64,000 nucleotides of DNA from assembly GCA_029060025.1 (NCBI GenBank), contig JAIDUV010000049.1, forward strand, positions 8,904 to 72,903, in the 5' to 3' direction. Under the pieces are notes generated by a model, which was not told the origin of the DNA, ran no database searches, and worked only from the letters and a program-made list of their open reading frames with translations. This DNA is from Clostridia bacterium. GTDB taxonomy: Bacteria > Bacillota > Clostridia > Christensenellales > UBA3700. Position 1 is the stretch's first letter. Every line of letters begins with the position of its first letter. Made by a program: the position numbers and the translations under genes. Below are positions 42,680-51,554 of this stretch, piece by piece.

Positions 42680-44817
42680 CACTGCCTCCAAGATCTTTCG
42701 ACTTTTATTCTATCATTATTTAATTCAAAAGTAAACGTACTAGGCACGTAATTTTTGACAGAATTATCAAAACCAATGTCGCAAACGATATATTTCCCCT
42801 CCGTATCTCCGCTGATGACGTTGTAAGTCACGAGTATTTGATAGTTTTCGTCACTTACGAAATAATCGTCCGCCATTACTCTCAATGTCGTTCCTCCCGA
42901 CACAATATCCAACGTTCCGTAATTAAGATAGCCTGTCGTCAATCCGTCCTCGACGACAGAAGTCCCTGCATAAATTCCGCTTGACGTATGCGCCACGCTG
43001 TAGACGTACGGACAGTTGGTCGCCATCTGCAACTTCTTGAGATAATAATCGTCGACGTCGCCCACGATTATTATTCCGTCGATTTTAGAGAATTTATTCT
43101 CGCTCATAGCGGTTTTTACACTTTCCACACTATCACCGCTCGTCTTATCGTTGATTATCAAATATTCTCCGCCAAACGCATTGTCAACTAGTATATATTG
43201 ACAGTCGTATTTGTCGGCAAAACAGTATACGTACAAATCGTTTGAGCCCCATATTCTAAATGCCGTAGACACTGTAAATACTAATGCGAATACAAAAAAT
43301 ACCGCGGCAATACGCTTGATATTTTTGTGTACGAATACGTATTCCGACAACAAGAGTGTGCTCAGTATGCTAATAAGAATAATAACTGCGTTGGTATCGA
43401 AGTTGATAATCAGCGCGGGTATTTTGCTTATCCACCCGATAAGCATTGACAAAAGCGTAAACGGAGCCGCCACCGCCGTCACAAGCCAACCCATAAACGG
43501 CGCAACCGACGCCAACGTAACGGCAAAAAGGTATATAGGAAATATTACTCCCATCACAGGCAAGAGCAAAAGATTGGCAATAATAAAAAGCAGCGTCTGC
43601 CCGCTGAAAAAATACATCATCAATGGCAAAAGCGCGACGTTGACGGCTATGGATACGGCAATCAAACTGCCAAGCCGTTTGGGCAACTTTTTAAATATCT
43701 TTTCAAGCGGTTTGCGCAACGTGAGTATGCCGAATACCGCAAAGAAACTCATCAAAAATCCTATGTCAAACAAATAGATCTGATCAACTGTTAATATACC
43801 GCTTGCCACCAACGACATACTTGAAATTCCGTCGTTGCGCATACCCAGCGCCTTGGCTAGCATAAGCATTACCGTCATTACGCTTGCCCGCACTGTGGAC
43901 GGTGAAAAACCGCACAGCGCAGTGAAAATAATCAAGACAACGCTCATTATCGCAAGTCTTATCACTCGGTTATTGAGTTTGATTCTCTTGAATATCCAAA
44001 GCAATCCGCCGGCAAGTATACCCACGTGCAAACCCGATACGGCAAAGACGTGCGCCGTGCCTGTATAACTGAAATTGCTTTTGATTTGCGTATCCAATCC
44101 GTTTTTGTCACCAAAAGTCATTGCGTACAAAAAGCCTGCCGTATCCGACCTTGTGTATGAATATAGCGTACTCTTTACTTTGATCTTTATTCTATCAAGC
44201 AACTTCAGCCCCGACGATACTTTGTAAAAACAAAAATTTTCGTCGTCGAAATTTACTTCGCAATAGACATAGTGATATTGTTTGTTACGGTAATTCTGAA
44301 CGCTATACGCATCTTCAACGACAAGATTTTGCGGAGCAATACTACCTCTGAATTTAATTCTGTCACCTATCTTAAATCCTTCAAAAATCTCGCCGTCTGA
44401 AAATATTGCAACCGCCTTACCCTCTATTTCTTCTCCGTCGACGAGTATATTACTCAAGCATACCTGTATTCCAAATACATCGTTAGAAGGTTGCAGCGCG
44501 CCGTTTTCGTCGCAATCGGTAAGCATATCTATATCGGCTTCGATAAGAGAATTTTCGCTGTAAATTTGTCTGTTTTCAACCCTTGTATACGTAAGCGAAG
44601 TCAATCCCAGAAAGAGAAAAAATACCAAAATACATATAATAAGTTTGGGTCTTGACTTTTTGAATTGCTTTATAAATATAATTGACAAAAGCGCAATTAC
44701 CGCAAGCGCAACAATAGCAATCACTGTCGTATTACTGCAAAAAGTAATAGACAAAATTGCCAAGACAATGCTCAACAAAATCAGTGGAGCAATCCTGAAA
44801 TTAAATATTCTTTTCAT
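42679..44817 (-). CDS. comEC: ComEC/Rec2-family DNA internalization protein
   Basis: 712 aa. An OB-like N-terminal region then a polytopic competence domain (TGTAHVFAVSGLHVGIL). I see no clear HxHxDH beta-lactamase motif in the C-terminus. Confidence 0.8.
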   Translation of the reverse strand: MKRIFNFRIAPLILLSIVLAILSITFCSNTTVIAIVALAVIALLSIIFIKQFKKSRPKLIICILVFFLFLGLTSLTYTRVENRQIYSENSLIEADIDMLTDCDENGALQPSNDVFGIQVCLSNILVDGEEIEGKAVAIFSDGEIFEGFKIGDRIKFRGSIAPQNLVVEDAYSVQNYRNKQYHYVYCEVNFDDENFCFYKVSSGLKLLDRIKIKVKSTLYSYTRSDTAGFLYAMTFGDKNGLDTQIKSNFSYTGTAHVFAVSGLHVGILAGGLLWIFKRIKLNNRVIRLAIMSVVLIIFTALCGFSPSTVRASVMTVMLMLAKALGMRNDGISSMSLVASGILTVDQIYLFDIGFLMSFFAVFGILTLRKPLEKIFKKLPKRLGSLIAVSIAVNVALLPLMMYFFSGQTLLFIIANLLLLPVMGVIFPIYLFAVTLASVAPFMGWLVTAVAAPFTLLSMLIGWISKIPALIINFDTNAVIILISILSTLLLSEYVFVHKNIKRIAAVFFVFALVFTVSTAFRIWGSNDLYVYCFADKYDCQYILVDNAFGGEYLIINDKTSGDSVESVKTAMSENKFSKIDGIIIVGDVDDYYLKKLQMATNCPYVYSVAHTSSGIYAGTSVVEDGLTTGYLNYGTLDIVSGGTTLRVMADDYFVSDENYQILVTYNVISGDTEGKYIVCDIGFDNSVKNYVPSTFTFELNNDRIKVERSWRQ

Positions 44818-44856
44818 TTATTTTATCTTTAGTAAAGTAAGTTTTATCTACAACCC

Positions 44857-45390
44857 TTAATCTTTTAAAAACACTTCATTGTATAGATCTATGGCTTTGC
44901 TTATGGACTCTATTGCCGTATCCCTGCCGGACAGTTCAAGCACTTCCATCTTCTTGCCCTCAAGTTGTTTATATACTCCAAAAAAGTGTTTCATTTCTTC
45001 AATAATATGCGGCGGGAGTTGACTTACGTCTTTATATCCATTCCAGTTGGGGTCTTTAAAAGGTACCGCCAAAATCTTGATATCTTCCCTACCGTCGTCG
45101 ATCATCGCGATCTGCCCTATCGGATAGCACTTGACAAGCGCAAGCGGAGCAATCTCTTCGCTGCATATCACAAGCACGTCCAATGGGTCTCCGTCGTCTG
45201 CATACGTACGCGGAATAAATCCGTAATTTGCAGGATAGTGCGTCGCAGTATAAAGTATTCTGTCCAAAATAAGCATACCAGTCTGCTTATCGACTTCGTA
45301 CTTGTTTTTGCACCCCTTTGGAATTTCTATACACGCTATAAAATCCTCGCTGGCAATTCTGTCCTTACTTATGTCGTGCCAAATATTCAT
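44857..45390 (-). CDS. ppa: Inorganic pyrophosphatase (family I)
   Basis: 177 aa. IEIPKGCKNKYEVD, YPANYGFIP, DGDPLDVLV. Confidence 0.95.
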   Translation of the reverse strand: MNIWHDISKDRIASEDFIACIEIPKGCKNKYEVDKQTGMLILDRILYTATHYPANYGFIPRTYADDGDPLDVLVICSEEIAPLALVKCYPIGQIAMIDDGREDIKILAVPFKDPNWNGYKDVSQLPPHIIEEMKHFFGVYKQLEGKKMEVLELSGRDTAIESISKAIDLYNEVFLKD

Positions 45391-45566
45391 ACCTTCCCCT
45401 CCTTATCTTATTTAGTTGCTTGTTGCCTCTGACAAATTTGCTCAAATCAATATCAAAATTGCCGCGCTGGCTTACGCAAAGGCTTTTAATAGATATATTG
45501 TACTATAACTTTTTTGATAAATCTATACTTTTTTAAATAATTCGCATTATTTTTTTATTTTTTTGA

Positions 45567-45595
45567 TTGCAAATGCAAAAATAGTATGCTAATAT
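45567..45595 (+). promoter_or_regulatory. Candidate promoter of tRNA-Leu
   Basis: TTGCAA, 17 nt, TAATAT, about 60 nt upstream of the tRNA. Confidence 0.4.
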
Positions 45596-45656
45596 AATAA
45601 AGCAATAGCCGAATGTGTAGCAATTTGCTCTGTCGACTACTTGCCCACCCAAATAT

Positions 45657-45743
45657 GCCGAAGTGGTGGAATTGGCAGACGCGCCGGACTCAAAATCCGG
45701 TGATGGCGACATCGTGCGGGTTCAAGTCCCGCCTTCGGCACCA
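45657..45743 (+). tRNA. tRNA-Leu (anticodon CAA), class II, CCA encoded
   Basis: Acceptor GCCGAAG/CTTCGGC. Anticodon arm CCGGA-CTCAAAA-TCCGG. Long variable arm. T-arm GCGGG-TTCAAGT-CCCGC. Ends ACCA. Confidence 0.95.
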
Positions 45744-45746
45744 AAA

Positions 45747-45775
45747 ATACAAGGCTTTTGAGCCTTGTATTTTTA
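45747..45775 (+). terminator. Terminator after tRNA-Leu
   Basis: ATACAAGGCT tttg AGCCTTGTAT followed by TTTT. Confidence 0.8.
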
Positions 45776-45851
45776 CTTCTTACTTCTTCATCAATTTTGC
45801 GCCCGTCTGCCAAGCCTGACCTACTTTTTCTCCTATCGCATAGTAGCCGCT

Positions 45852-46351
45852 TTAAAATTGGTTGAATACAAACGCCTTTAGTTTTACAGGATTGACCTTT
45901 CCTTTTTCGTCAAGCACTTTTTCATCTGCAAGTACGTTAAGTATTTCTCCAAGCACTCTAAAACCGTAAACGGTATTTTGACATTCAACGACCTTACATT
46001 CAAGCGTCAAAGTAAATTCTTGCACTATCGGTGCGTTTATCCTTGAACTCTTTATTGCATGCAGTCCCGAACGCTCAAACTTATCTTTCATTTTATTACC
46101 CGTTGCAATGCCAAAAAAGTCAGCCACCTCGTTATGATCTATATCGACAATGCTCAATGTGAACGCCCCGTTCGTTTGATATTTTCGGAAGTCTTGTGAT
46201 CTTCGTCAATATTAAGCGCAACCATATTTTCAGCGCAAACTCCGCCCCAAGCCATATTCATAACGTCAACGGTTCCGTCTTCGTTATAGGTTGAAATCAT
46301 AAGCACGGGCATAGGAAAAGTATAAGGTTTTACTCCTAAATCTTTTAACAT
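45852..46351 (-). pseudogene. Flavin reductase-like (flavoredoxin) gene with a -1 frameshift
   Basis: ORFs 46154-46351 and 45852-46157 join as ...ENIKRTG|AFTLSIVDIDHNEVADFFG only if the C4 run at 46166-46169 (G4 on the coding strand) were 5 nt long. Confidence 0.7.
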
Positions 46352-46470
46352 ATTTTATACTCCTTATTATTTAATAGTATCTGAATTTTGTTTATAGGCT
46401 TTGGCACGCCTTGAAAACATAAATTTTATAATGATATTATAATTATGTCAAGTACGCACATTTATGTTAG

Positions 46471-46578
46471 ATACTTACAAAAAGGCCAAAGGTCGAATAT
46501 AGTCTTTCCAAACGTGGAAAGTCGTTAATGCCCATTCTTGACAGAATGGGCGAATGGGGCTACAAAAATAGAATTTAA
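46471..46578 (+). pseudogene. HxlR-type regulator remnant (C-terminal ~35 codons only)
   Basis: Reads ILTKRPKVEYSLSKRGKSLMPILDRMGEWGYKNRI*, matching the wing and C-terminal helix of HxlR-family regulators. Preceded by stop codons. Confidence 0.5.
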
Positions 46579-46607
46579 TCTAAGCTTTTAGTTCATCATT
46601 GATAAAT

Positions 46608-46637
46608 CAAAAAGACCTGCAAATGCAGGTCTTTTGC
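46608..46637. terminator. Terminator hairpin AAAGACCTGC-aaat-GCAGGTCTTT
   Basis: 10-bp perfect stem with T-runs on both strands. A near-identical hairpin lies at 48101-48124. Confidence 0.75.
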
Positions 46638-46652
46638 TTTACTGATTAATTA

Positions 46653-47321
46653 TCAGTTGTTATTATCTTCTGCGACTGGAGGCAACGATATGCTCGTGCT
46701 ACCCACGCCGGAAATCGTCAAAGTAAATTTAGTCGTCATACCGTCGTCACTATTTGTAATGGTCTGTTCTGCATACACGAATTTTCCGCCTATAATTTTG
46801 ATCAATACATTGTATCCTTCTAAGTTACCTACATAACCATTCTTGTCTTTATCATAGGTGAATTTGGAGAAATTATCAGAAAGTTGGTCAAAGTTACCAA
46901 TACTCAAATCAACGTTGTAACTAAGCTCTTCGCGAGACCATGTCTTTTCTTCTTCATCGTAGCTATATCGATATACCTTATCTCCCTCTTTTGCTACGTA
47001 AGATTCATCCACCTCTTTTTGCAAACCGTCTTCCTCGTCGATATATTCCGTAGTTTTCTTCGTATGAATCTTGTCACCGTCATACTCCGTAACCTCGGTT
47101 ATCGTAAATTCAATACCGTCTTCTGTTCCGGTCGTTACCTGATTAATCGTAGCATTTTTTACATCACTGTAATCAAACGCTTTTACCCACTGCTCGGCGG
47201 TTACCTCTTCGCCTTTCATATTTGCCGGATTTTTATCGCCGTTGCAAGCTACGAAAGACACTGCCATAACGATTGCCAAAACCATTATGGTAATTGCTGC
47301 CCAAAAATGTCTTTTTTTCAT
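46653..47321 (-). CDS. Lipoprotein, unknown function
   Basis: 222 aa. RBS ggaggtg. Lipobox FVAC. Acidic, beta-rich sequence. Confidence 0.75.
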   Translation of the reverse strand: MKKRHFWAAITIMVLAIVMAVSFVACNGDKNPANMKGEEVTAEQWVKAFDYSDVKNATINQVTTGTEDGIEFTITEVTEYDGDKIHTKKTTEYIDEEDGLQKEVDESYVAKEGDKVYRYSYDEEEKTWSREELSYNVDLSIGNFDQLSDNFSKFTYDKDKNGYVGNLEGYNVLIKIIGGKFVYAEQTITNSDDGMTTKFTLTISGVGSTSISLPPVAEDNNN

Positions 47322-47349
47322 AAATACACCTCCAAAAAAGATTTATTAT

Positions 47350-47377
47350 ATTCTACCCCCCCCCCGCATTATGTCAA
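47350..47377 (-). promoter_or_regulatory. Promoter with a G10 homopolymer inside the -35/-10 spacer
   Basis: Minus strand: TTGACA (47377-47372), taatgc + G10 (poly-C at 47356-47365 on plus), TAGAAT (47355-47350). Spacer is 16 nt. About 25 nt from the RBS of the lipoprotein gene. Confidence 0.6.
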
Positions 47378-47428
47378 GCGGTTTTAAGAAAAAAATTCAA
47401 TTTCAGACAAATCATTCATTCCACCGTC

Positions 47429-48085
47429 TTACTCTTTACCAAACTTTACCGTAGATAAATCTTTGCCGGGTAATATAATGGGATAGACATTCTCTTCTTC
47501 TGTGATCATAAATTCAAGCAAAGTGGGCGTATCAGTTTGCTGCATCGCAAAGACAAAAGCGTCGTCTATATCTTCTTTATTCATGATTCTTTTATGCCTT
47601 ATATCATAACTATCTGCAAGTTTTTGAAAATCAGGAACGTAAGCAGGACAATCTTGCATAGTCGAGCATTGCTTAGGACACGTTGATCTCCGCCTTAAAC
47701 AAGTACTTTGGTATCTTTTCCCATAATACAACTCTTGCCATTGTCTGATGTTGCCGAGCCAACAGTTATTCAGCAAACAAATTATGATTGGCAAGCCGTT
47801 GATAACTGCCGTCGCAAGTTCTTGCACGTTCATTTGAAATCCGCCGTCGACTACTATTGCCACAACGGGAATTTGCGGATTTGCCAACTTTGCGCCTATC
47901 GCCGCAGGCAGACCAAATCCCATAGTGCCGAAACCGCCCGACGTCAATAATTTCCTACGTTCGTTTAGTTGCAAAAACTGCGTTGTCCATAGTTGGTTTT
48001 GTCCTACGTCGGTTGCGACAATAATCAAGACGCTATGCGCCTCCCTCGCTATTCCGTCGCTTTCGCTCCTTACAAGTCCCGCCGT
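47429..48085 (-). pseudogene. Acetolactate synthase large-subunit fragment (C-terminal ThDP domain only)
   Basis: ...EAHSVLIIVATDVGQNQLWTTQ...SGGFGTMGFGLPAAIGA... The frame opens only at 48085, right against the neighbouring terminator. The N-terminal ~2/3 of the gene is absent. Confidence 0.7.
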
Positions 48086-48098
48086 CTAGTACCACCTT

Positions 48099-48126
48099 AC
48101 AAAGACCTGCAAACGCAGGTCTTTCG
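48099..48126 (-). terminator. Terminator hairpin AAAGACCTGC-aaac-GCAGGTCTTT downstream of anSME
   Basis: Twin of the 46611-46634 hairpin (one loop difference). Confidence 0.6.
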
Positions 48127-48139
48127 ATTTGTTTTCTTA

Positions 48140-49231
48140 TTATTTTTTTTCGTTGATAAACACTCTAAACAACGGCAGACAAGCGCTAAAAAATTGTTTA
48201 TAGGCTTGGCAATAATCGCGATCTTCTTTTGACCTTTTGCAACCTCCGCCGCGGCATACGCGGAAGTAAGGACACTCTCGACATTGATTTGAAATATTAA
48301 AGGAACCGCGTGTAAATTCGTCGGCTTTTTTGCTGAATGCCAACTGTGTGAAATCTTCGTTATTGACGTTGCCTAGCAACCATTCGTCCAAGCAGTAAAA
48401 ATCGCAGGGATAGACGTTGCCGTTGCCCTCAACGACAAATTGGCGGGAACAAAAACCGTTCATACCGCATTGCTCTGCGTGTCCGCCCAAGAACAATCTA
48501 ACGTAATTGTCAAACTGTCGAATACTGACGTACTCTCCCTTAACGTAGTCTTTTACGTATAGATTGAATAATTTAATCAAAAACGACGAGTATTGCTCGA
48601 CGGTCATATATAAATTGCTTTCGCTCCTATCCCCAAAAGGGCGCAAACACGGAATGAATTGCAAGTATTTGATGTCTTGGCTCTTAAAATATTTGTATAC
48701 TGACTCGATATGATCCGCCGTATATCCGGTGGCAACAATCAAGACGTTGAAATCCACTTTGCGCGCTTTAAGCAAATCCATAGTTGCTTTAACTTTTGGA
48801 AAGGTATAATTCAGATTGCTATCTAATCTAAAGCGGTTGGCGTCTTGGTCTCCGTCAAGGCTCAATCCCAACAAAAATTTGTTTTCCACAAAAAAGTCTG
48901 CCCATTCCTCGTCAATCAACGTGCCGTTGGTCTGCATATTGTAATATACCTTGCAGCCTTGCGTATTATACTTATTTACCGTCGCAATAAAGTCTTTGAA
49001 GAACTCTTTGCCTGCAAACAACGGTTCGCCGCCTTGAAAGGCAAAATAAATGCTTCCGCCCTCGCAAAAAGCGAGGGCTTTTTTTATCAGATTTTCCGCC
49101 GTACTTGGCGTCATAATTCCATAAGACGAAGCCTCTCTAGACTGCGCCACGGAATGGTAGAAACAATATTTGCATCGCATATTACATATACTCGACGCAG
49201 GTTTTATCATAATGGATAAATCTTTTTTCAT
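48140..49231 (-). CDS. Anaerobic sulfatase-maturating enzyme (radical SAM/SPASM)
   Basis: 363 aa. CNMRCKYCFY (CxxxCxxC) and a C-terminal Cys-rich SPASM region (CRECPYFRVCRGGC). Adjacent to a sulfatase gene. Confidence 0.85.
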   Translation of the reverse strand: MKKDLSIMIKPASSICNMRCKYCFYHSVAQSREASSYGIMTPSTAENLIKKALAFCEGGSIYFAFQGGEPLFAGKEFFKDFIATVNKYNTQGCKVYYNMQTNGTLIDEEWADFFVENKFLLGLSLDGDQDANRFRLDSNLNYTFPKVKATMDLLKARKVDFNVLIVATGYTADHIESVYKYFKSQDIKYLQFIPCLRPFGDRSESNLYMTVEQYSSFLIKLFNLYVKDYVKGEYVSIRQFDNYVRLFLGGHAEQCGMNGFCSRQFVVEGNGNVYPCDFYCLDEWLLGNVNNEDFTQLAFSKKADEFTRGSFNISNQCRECPYFRVCRGGGCKRSKEDRDYCQAYKQFFSACLPLFRVFINEKK

Positions 49232-49238
49232 AAATCTA

Positions 49239-51554
49239 TCAACTACGCTTTTCGGCGTTCAACGTAGTGTAATACAACGCGTAATCTTTTGTGCCGTCGT
49301 TATAGTATGCGGCATTTATTCCTCTGCGATTTTTAGAGAGTTTTTTCTCCCACTGCGACAAAGTACTGTTCAAATCTTTTGCTATCAGCGGGAACATATC
49401 GGCGCGCTGATAATTCTCTCCCCAATCGTCACTCAAACAAATAAGCCAATTCTTCCTGCTCTTATCGGGGAATGCGGGATTGTCGTTTTGCATTTGTCTG
49501 AAATACTTCCACACAGTATAAGATTGCGATTGAATAAAATCATACTCTTCAGCCATCTCTTTTGTCACCGTATACGTCTGAGATACGCCCAAAGAATTGA
49601 TTATCTTGACTTCGCTGCCGATGATCATATCCAGCGCTTCGTTCTTTGGTATGGAGTACGATACCGACTTGATCTTCTCTCTCTTCATATAGAGTATAGG
49701 TCTGCTCTGTCCGTGTATATACTCCGTAAATTTGCCCTGTTCGTCGGGTAGGTATAGCGAATTCATAGACACGCCGTCTATCTCTCTGTCAAAAGGCATC
49801 ATAGCATCGTATACTTGCTCGCCTACTAAGCCCTTGATTCCGCACAGTTCGACCAAAGTCGGGAAAAGATCGACGTTGGTGGCTTGGGCAGAAACCTTCG
49901 TGCCCGAGTTCATATATTGATTATTTCCGTATCGAATATAATAAGGGACTTTTTGTCCGCCCTCATACGCGGTATATTTACCGCCTCGCAAATCGTCTGT
50001 CGAGCCTTGCAAAGCCGGTCCGTTGTCTGACGTAAACACAATGACTGTGTCGTCCAGCACGCCCAACTCCTGCATATTGTAGAAAAGTTCGCTGAGATAA
50101 TAATCAAATTCCGTTACGCAATCGGCATATATACCGGCGCCTGTCGCGCCTTGACCCACCGACACTTCTTTGCCTGTCTTTTCCCATCTGTGAGTATCGT
50201 AATTATAACCGTATTCCGGCTTTTGAGTCGGACTGCCGGCATAGATCGGAGCGTGCGGCCACGGCGTAGCGTAATAAGCAAAGAACGGAGTACCTTTGTC
50301 ATAAGTATCACTGCTCTTTGTCTCTTCGCCTTTGACGACGTCTCCTATCCATTCGTTGATAGACTCGTGACAGTATTGCGTCAACATAGTCTGGTCTATC
50401 TTGGTTCCACCGTTGACGATCTAGTATCTGCCGTCGCTTTCTTCGACGTAATAGAAAGGTGTCATATCGTTTACGTAGTGCGAGCCGTAGAAATAATCAA
50501 AGCCCTGATTGGTTGGGAGATACTCGCCGTAATCACCCAAATGCCACTTGCCAAATCCGCCGGTAGCATACCCCGCGTTTTTGAATACTTCAGCAAGCGT
50601 AATCTCGTCTCCAAGCATACCGTCTACGTTACCGCCCATCTCAATAGCGTTAAAAAGTCTTGTAAAGCATACCGGCATTGACGTCGTGACAGTCGGATAG
50701 ATTACGTTGTCGGCGTAACCTCTGTATGGGTATCTGCCTGTCAGCGTAGCAAATCTCGACGGCGAGCATACGGAATAACTTGCGTAGAAGTTATCAAACG
50801 CAACTCCTTCCTGTCCGACAAAATCCATAGCAGGCGTACTGTATACGGTATTTCCATTGTACGACGTATCACCGTAACCCATATCGTCCATCAAAATTAC
50901 CAACACGTTGGGTGATTGAGAATTTACGCCGTTCTTATTATAATAATCGTTAAGCGCTTTCAAATAATCGTCTTCTCCGCCTGACATATCTACGGCAACA
51001 GGCTTTGCGCGCAAATTGCACGTAAATATCAACGCTACGGACGCAAGTATAAGAGATACTGACAAGACGGATGCAATTGGACGCACAAACTTCTTATCGC
51101 ACAATTTTTTGCATATCAAAAACAATACCGATGCCAACGCAACGCACGGCGATACTATCAAGATATTGCCTGCAAGCCTTGTGAAGAAGTTGCCCTCACC
51201 TTGCCATAGATAGTGATCGACGTTGACGAAGCCGTCCTTACCGGTGGACAATGCTCCCCAACCGCTGTCCGCGCCTGCCACGATATAAAAACTCGCAATT
51301 GCGAATATCGGCAGCGCGTAAGCCAACAAAAGCCATTTGTTGAGTCTTGCCTTGAATACCACGTTGACGAAAATAACTACCGATACGATAAATAAAAATA
51401 TCAAATTTATCAGCGTAATTAAATTCAGACCTATAATCCATTGCGTCAAGGTCAGTGCCACTGCAATAAATACCAAAGCAATGGGAAATTTGTTCTTAGA
51501 ACTTTGAAATTCAAATTTGCGACTTTGCGTTTTATCTTTTTTCAATCCCGTCAC
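49239..51554 (-). pseudogene. Membrane-anchored Cys-type sulfatase interrupted by one in-frame TAG
   Basis: ORFs 50421-51554 (about 5 TM segments, then LMDDMGYGD, SVCSPSRFATLTGRYP) and 49239-50387 (FTSDNGPA) are in the same frame: ...ESDGRY-TAG(50421-50423)-IVNGGTKIDQTMLTQY... Confidence 0.75.

Follow-up and report, generated by a model that had tools for sequence, protein, structure and literature searches.

A G10 tract in the promoter spacer of a Clostridia lipoprotein gene is a candidate slipped-strand expression switch

A run of ten G residues lies between the -35 and -10 hexamers of a lipoprotein gene in a Clostridia bacterium, and we read it, with a probability of about 0.68, as a slipped-strand promoter switch of the porA/fetA type. 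On this view the tract is a hypermutable simple-sequence repeat within the core sigma-A promoter, and the lipoprotein gene it serves is monocistronic. As the DNA is copied, slipped-strand mispairing would make the tract one G longer or shorter, which would alter both the distance and the rotational phasing between TTGACA and TAGAAT. Promoter strength would shift with spacing, and clonal descendants would come to differ in the amount of lipoprotein they make. The outcome would be transcriptional phase or 'volume' variation, as for Neisseria porA, fetA and opc. A spacer-length switch of this kind had been proposed in an earlier sequence-only reading of the region. The proposal gains support from tract lengths of G9 and G10 in two assemblies of one strain and from conservation of the tract in homologues of only 37-39% identity.

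The genome is a metagenome-assembled genome (MAG) of 2.04 Mb in 98 contigs with 41% G+C, and the window referred to below is the whole analysed stretch of 64,000 nucleotides, C44:8904-72903. Read directly on the minus strand, the promoter is cgcTTGACAtaatgcGGGGGGGGGGTAGAATataataaatcttttttGGAGGtgtatttATG. A -35 hexamer of perfect consensus, TTGACA (47372-47377), is followed by the six-nucleotide non-repeat part of the spacer, taatgc (47366-47371), by the G10 homopolymer that forms the candidate slippage tract (47356-47365, poly-C on the plus strand), and by the -10 hexamer TAGAAT (47350-47355), which matches the consensus at 5/6 positions and lies 16 nt from the -35 element. The hexamers, spacer and tract first described for this strand are correct to the base. 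In a consensus scan of the surrounding 4 kb, this arrangement is joint best, with 11/12 matches. As in promoters of the porA/fetA/opc type, an uninterrupted homopolymer of at least about 8 nt separates the two hexamers of the predicted promoter, TTGACA-taatgc-G10-TAGAAT. The prediction of this core promoter draws on consensus matches and on conservation among homologues, and we infer that TTGACA and TAGAAT are the promoter in use. A perfect TATAAT (47345-47350, minus strand) overlaps TAGAAT, lies 21 nt from TTGACA, and has no -35-like hexamer 17 nt upstream on direct reading of the sequence; it is probably not used with TTGACA at 47372-47377. A ribosome-binding site, GGAGG (47329-47333, minus strand), stands 7 nt before the ATG at 47321, and an Rfam search of the short 5'UTR returned no RNA element. 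Because a strong intrinsic terminator with 11 pairs and a T-run (46610-46635, minus strand, from a hairpin scan) follows the stop codon, the transcription unit is read as monocistronic.

Genome-wide, G/C runs number 337 at length 5, 51 at length 6, six at length 7 and one at length 8, a drop of ~6.5-fold per extra base. Against this background, three runs of at least 9 are seen in the 2.04 Mb where ~0.2 would be expected, an over-representation of about 15 times. The promoter G10, singled out earlier as the longest G/C homopolymer of the window, is in fact the only G/C run of at least 6 there. Its position is equally unusual. Strong promoter-like sites, defined as a perfect TTGACA with a -10 element of at least 5/6 matches at 15-18 nt, number 243 genome-wide, and the longest G run in every other spacer among them is at most 4. 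We roughly estimate at ~1e-3 the probability that chance alone would place one of the three long tracts entirely within such a spacer. A neutral homopolymer might have been expected in a gene that sits within a decaying patch, alongside a pseudogene and a gene fragment. The scarcity of runs of at least 9, the low probability of this placement, and the recurrence of the tract at homologous promoters and across the order (192 matches vs 2 for a control, described below) nevertheless exclude a chance origin for practical purposes, and we give it the lowest probability of any reading.

All three long G tracts lie at the 5' ends of envelope-protein genes, two of them within the coding regions of very large proteins, which is the usual signature of contingency loci. 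The second G10 (C33:28749-28758) occupies codons 26-29 (RGGGD) of a 2773-aa surface protein, in frame and just past the N-terminal signal anchor, and is a candidate translational phase-variation site. The third tract, a G9 (C67:44315-44323), falls near codon 50 in the gene for a 1304-aa membrane protein and adjoins a KKTxPAKSATAAKK tandem repeat. The copy number of this repeat varies between assemblies, and other contigs end inside it, so that comparison of the G9 is uninformative. Elsewhere in the genome, an intergenic repeat in at least three copies (C47:114, C69:5448 and C71:6453) carries the hairpin GGGGGG-TTGCGATT-CCCCCC followed by ACAAACGCTTTTGTCAAATTGATAT.

An identical lipoprotein is encoded in a second public assembly, ENA ERZ14208517 NODE_58 (L015). 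The 6,669 nt of that contig align to 43653-50322 of the window with 0 mismatches and one gap, which is the promoter tract: G9 there and G10 here. Tract length, which the sequence-only reading had expected to vary among strains, differs here between identical flanks, as in loci of the porA/fetA/opc type, although the comparison comprises two consensus assemblies (n=2) that possibly have reads in common and in which a technical miscall is possible. A miscall is conceivable because the same tract visibly yields Illumina phasing errors and contig breaks. The coding G10 at C33:28749-28758 provides a single control (n=1); it has the same length in both assemblies, within 10,437 nt that are 100% identical (L045, L064). 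Across the 17.1 kb compared between these two assemblies of one strain, the promoter tract is the sole difference. The main alternative to a slipped-strand switch, which we regard as unlikely though by no means negligible, is that the tract is a conserved but static G-rich promoter element, in a lineage that may favour G-rich spacers with GGG just before the -10, and that the G9/G10 difference and the contig breaks are homopolymer artefacts, with no meaningful switching. That the coding G10 of the same genome was assembled identically twice speaks against a purely artefactual origin of the difference.

Spacer length bears on the same choice. Among the 243 strong promoter-like sites, 149 have spacers of 17 nt, 49 of 18 nt, 26 of 16 nt and 19 of 15 nt; the 15- and 16-nt classes stand roughly at the level of random co-occurrence, and spacers of 17 or 18 nt overwhelmingly predominate among real promoters here. 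A tract of G9 gives a spacer of 15 nt, G10 one of 16 nt and G11 one of 17 nt. Since strong promoters in this genome mostly use 17 nt, G11 should be optimal, G10 sub-optimal and G9 poor. A static promoter, by comparison, would be expected at the 17-nt optimum and not at 15 or 16. Under the slipped-strand switch, changes in tract length would alter expression in a graded, 'volume'-like manner with a maximum near G11, and the assembled G10 and G9 states would probably be 'reduced' rather than 'full on'. No G11 (17-nt) allele is seen in the two assemblies, both of which are below the presumed optimum. Switching would be frequent and reversible. The genome encodes mutS, mutS2 and mutL, and because mutS and mutL are present, the slippage rate is expected to be lower than in phase-varying species deficient in repair.

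Of 22 other genomes in the genus, 4 encode a homologue of the lipoprotein, as do several metagenome assemblies. Three of the genomes (G007, G012 and G018) retain CTTGACA[T/C]AATGC, a G run and TAGAATATAAT, with a tract length of 9 or more. In G012 and G018, where lipoprotein identity is only 63-64%, the taatgc of the spacer has become caatgc and the G run is retained. At least four species retain the tract together with both hexamers. Interspecies DNA identity is 90-96% across the promoter, 5'UTR and signal peptide vs ~65-70% in the mature part. A scan of metagenome and genome contigs with GGGTAGAATATAATAAATC returned only chance matches plus MAGs already in the comparison.

The same tract defeats short-read assembly, while the coding G10 does not. 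Thirteen distinct contigs begin at the tract or no more than ~100 nt downstream from it, the most distant of them within the codons of the signal peptide. The first bases are G9-TAGAAT, GGG-TAGAAT or GG-TAGAAT in some; others, including the SPAdes contigs L002, L016, L019, L020, L026 and L027, open with a stretch of 37-52 C's joined to the -10 region, (T)AGAATATAAT. We interpret this stretch as a 'dark-cycle' poly-G artefact from two-colour Illumina chemistry, viewed on the opposite strand. The upstream halves of the broken loci also lie at contig ends. G018:C23 ends in CTTGACACAATGCGGGGG. The ends of G012:C28 and G007:C20 read CTTGACA[C/T]AATGC-G9-T and then run into a smeared version of the genuine downstream sequence, a pattern that phasing errors typically leave. 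Sequencing at this site does suffer from technical error, and the phasing-smeared ends and 37-52-nt poly-C artefacts are points in favour of a static element. When the tracts of G9 or longer in relatives were surveyed, genuine tracts were intermixed with adapter or poly-G artefacts from contig ends, and the survey carries no weight by itself here. The position of the thirteen contig ends is at the same time suggestive of longer or heterogeneous tracts in those samples. Adapter, poly-A and poly-G artefacts are also found at the contig ends of L052 and L055, from several MAGs of the genus; these public assemblies contain untrimmed artefacts of two-colour chemistry.

Contig breaks have another possible source, namely a promoter on an invertible or recombining segment, in which case either inversion or a 5' cassette in multiple copies would account for them. 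Invertons are typical places for an assembly to break, the gene is present twice in G018 with near-identical 5' ends, and G012 has a recombinase fragment downstream. Still, the breaks fall exactly on the G run with both halves ending in G's, the promoter and signal-peptide module is single copy in this genome, and the sole flanking inverted repeat is a 21-nt pair of A/T runs, 81% complementary, which includes the start codon. We consider this explanation very improbable. An inverton at the lipoprotein promoter was rejected in the window, where there are no credible flanking inverted repeats and no adjacent recombinase gene.

More distant homologues retain the promoter while the spacer drifts. 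A profile search gathered 239 representative relatives of the lipoprotein family, and a related-locus search with a 7-sequence alignment returned 7 loci. Homologue P0013, at 37% identity, reads TTGACA-aaatcc-G9-TATAAT, and P0014, at 39% identity, reads TTGACA-tccgc-G9-ta-TATAAT; a second contig of P0014 starts at G8-TATATAAT. Two further promoters have 17-nt spacers and no tract: TTGACA-caatgtagggcggaggg-TATAAT in L017/L018, at 56% identity, and TTGACA-aaagatgcgggaacggg-TATACT in gene 1 of L072, at 33% identity. TTGACA is retained in the distant homologues L066, L075, L017 and L072. By these sequences, the -35 and -10 elements are conserved as a promoter across the family, with 17 nt as the ancestral or untracted spacing. 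The short spacer part drifts, to aaatcc in L066 and to tccgc in L075, next to a G run that stays; by this comparison, pure G runs have either persisted or re-formed at one position as the spacer bases beside them changed. The tract-free promoters of L017 and L072 also have G-rich spacers that end in GGG before the -10 element, as a static G-rich element would predict. An uninterrupted G9-10 is intrinsically mutable, yet it is pure at three diverged homologous promoters whose neighbouring bases have changed, which argues for selection on the run itself and against a static element.

The locus L072:1430-1884, from MAG MGBC158472 (labelled Christensenellaceae), contains two adjacent, unrelated lipoprotein genes with nearly the same 5'UTR and signal peptide. 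Gene 1 has the interrupted G-rich 17-nt spacer, and gene 2, which encodes a small lipoprotein, reads TTGACA-aaaaatcac-G9-TATAAT. The pair suggests a portable module composed of a promoter and a signal peptide.

Similar tracts recur across the order. In 301 genomes sampled evenly from it, the pattern TTGACA-N3-9-G8 gives 192 matches in 48 genomes vs 2 for a reversed-pattern control; the 192 include overlapping matches and correspond to ~110 distinct tracts. Some genomes carry up to ~10 such loci. When 30 loci were fetched, ~10 of the 19 sampled sites with a callable downstream ORF preceded lipobox proteins, and some of the remaining sites precede secreted or membrane proteins. The lipoprotein-promoter G10 looks like one instance of a seemingly widespread design in the order. 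A broader interpretation, which we put forward tentatively and hold to be somewhat less than an even chance, is an order-wide 'phasome' in uncultured, probably animal-gut Clostridia, in which many genomes would have several core promoters with poly-G or, more rarely, poly-C spacers, these would preferentially serve lipoprotein genes, and a portable promoter-5'UTR-signal-peptide module would pass from one lipoprotein gene to another. By analogy, it may be a Gram-positive commensal counterpart of the contingency-locus strategy of Neisseria and Mycoplasma. The literature searched contained no description of such promoters in gut Clostridia, although its coverage is incomplete and this is weak evidence of novelty.

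The C-tract version of the pattern gives 29 matches in the same 48 genomes, so that G on the non-template strand is favoured ~6.6 to 1 over C, in genomes that had been preselected for G hits. This bias hints that sequence, and not length alone, is at stake, in keeping with a static element. It would also suit a tract that is a regulator site, or a G-rich RNA polymerase or DNA-structure element, whose effect depends on sequence rather than length; the conserved position immediately upstream of the -10 element points the same way. Such a role is improbable, given that no regulator gene is adjacent to the lipoprotein gene and that the tracts across the order begin at offsets of 3 to 9 nt from the -35 element with lengths of 8-14, unlike a fixed binding site.

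Several known systems resemble the proposed slipped-strand switch. In Neisseria meningitidis, slippage in the poly-G tract of the porA core promoter and the poly-C tract of the opc core promoter alters spacing and leads to graded expression. The poly-C tract in the fetA core promoter is phase variable at 8C or more and is not at 6C (PMC13293289). The lipoprotein promoter shares with these loci a G/C homopolymer of at least 8 within the -35/-10 spacer of a sigma-70-type promoter, in a host with mismatch-repair genes. It differs from them in belonging to uncultured Gram-positive-type Clostridia, probably a gut commensal, in driving a lipobox product of an uncharacterised family, and in having a switch that is so far a prediction. 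The vlp lipoprotein genes of Mycoplasma hyorhinis carry a poly-A tract in the promoter spacer. Like the present gene, they encode lipoproteins and join a conserved 5' module to divergent mature parts; here, the tract is G instead of A and the gene is single copy. We found no Vlp-type multigene family in this genome, and sharing of the module is seen only in relatives, with two copies in G018 and two adjacent genes in L072.

Two further comparisons concern G tracts in other bacteria. Poly-G tract length modulates transcription in Treponema pallidum, where not all of the tracts are known to lie inside the -35/-10 spacer. One report describes poly-G tracts upstream of genes for putative surface proteins of this species, tprL and tp0126 (PMC7864442). 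The organism and protein families are different from those considered here. The pilus switch of Bifidobacterium breve depends on a G-tract in the coding region and is translational. In a study of this gut commensal, replication slippage is described as an ON/OFF switch of a surface structure, the pilus cluster (PMC9187656). The Clostridia tract differs in lying in a promoter spacer, where its effect would be transcriptional.

Promoter-homopolymer switching of surface proteins is textbook knowledge for mucosal pathogens. For gut commensals, attention has mostly gone to invertible promoters and epigenetic switches. The mechanism at this single locus is not new; the lineage is one for which we found no published description, within incomplete coverage of the literature. 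The value of the locus lies in being a clean, well-controlled example. If poly-G promoters do set the level of lipoproteins across this order of uncultured gut Clostridia, clonal populations would be phenotypically mixed at the surface, with consequences for how they are recognised by the immune system, for phage receptors and for the capture of nutrients. Assembly of metagenomes would also break systematically at these regulatory sites and misreport tract lengths, as the thirteen contigs found here illustrate. Tract length, taken from metagenomic reads, could then document how surface proteins are selected in vivo.

The gene under this promoter (46653-47321, minus strand, called as an ORF) encodes 222 aa and starts MKKRHFWAAITIMVLAIVMAVSFVAC. 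Its N-terminus has a positively charged MKKRH region, a hydrophobic core and a lipobox, VSFVAC, with Cys26, in line with the earlier description of a lipobox lipoprotein. These features predict a membrane-anchored extracytoplasmic lipoprotein, which is presumably surface exposed. The ORF is intact wherever it is assembled at full length, and some contigs of relatives truncate its 5' end. The protein matches no Pfam family above cut-off. An AlphaFold2 model with a mean pLDDT of 75.5 shows, after the lipid anchor, a domain formed by a curved antiparallel beta-sheet, and Foldseek returns weak matches (TM 0.25-0.39) to LolA/LolB-like half-barrels, staphylococcal Csa1 and SAOUHSC_02783.

The surroundings of the gene are decayed, as had been noted from the sequence, with a fragment upstream and a disrupted gene downstream. 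Between an upstream hairpin and the promoter lies a fragment that Pfam assigns to TPP_enzyme_C only (47429-48028, minus strand), that is, the C-terminal TPP-binding domain of an acetolactate-synthase-type enzyme alone. The upstream hairpin, AAAGACCTGCGTTTGCAGGTCTTT (48101-48124, minus strand, found by repeat search), is near-identical to the stem of the lipoprotein terminator, and the two hairpins (46611-46634 and 48101-48124; AAAGACCTGCAAa/cGCAGGTCTTT) bracket the TPP fragment and the lipoprotein gene. G018 lacks the fragment and has the hairpin ~130 nt upstream of its -35 element; for this reason the fragment seems to have been inserted directly behind the hairpin. Downstream, Pfam and comparison with a relative identify a flavin reductase pseudogene (45852-46351, minus strand); against the intact 190-aa gene of L022 it shows one frameshift, past residue ~62, and one in-frame stop. 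A tRNA-Leu(CAA) found by tRNA search (45657-45743, plus strand) borders the patch. Directly upstream of the patch, at 48140-50387 on the minus strand, is a sulfatase gene that is apparently split (49239-50387 and 50421-51554); after it comes the gene of a radical-SAM/SPASM protein that is probably an anaerobic sulfatase-maturating enzyme.
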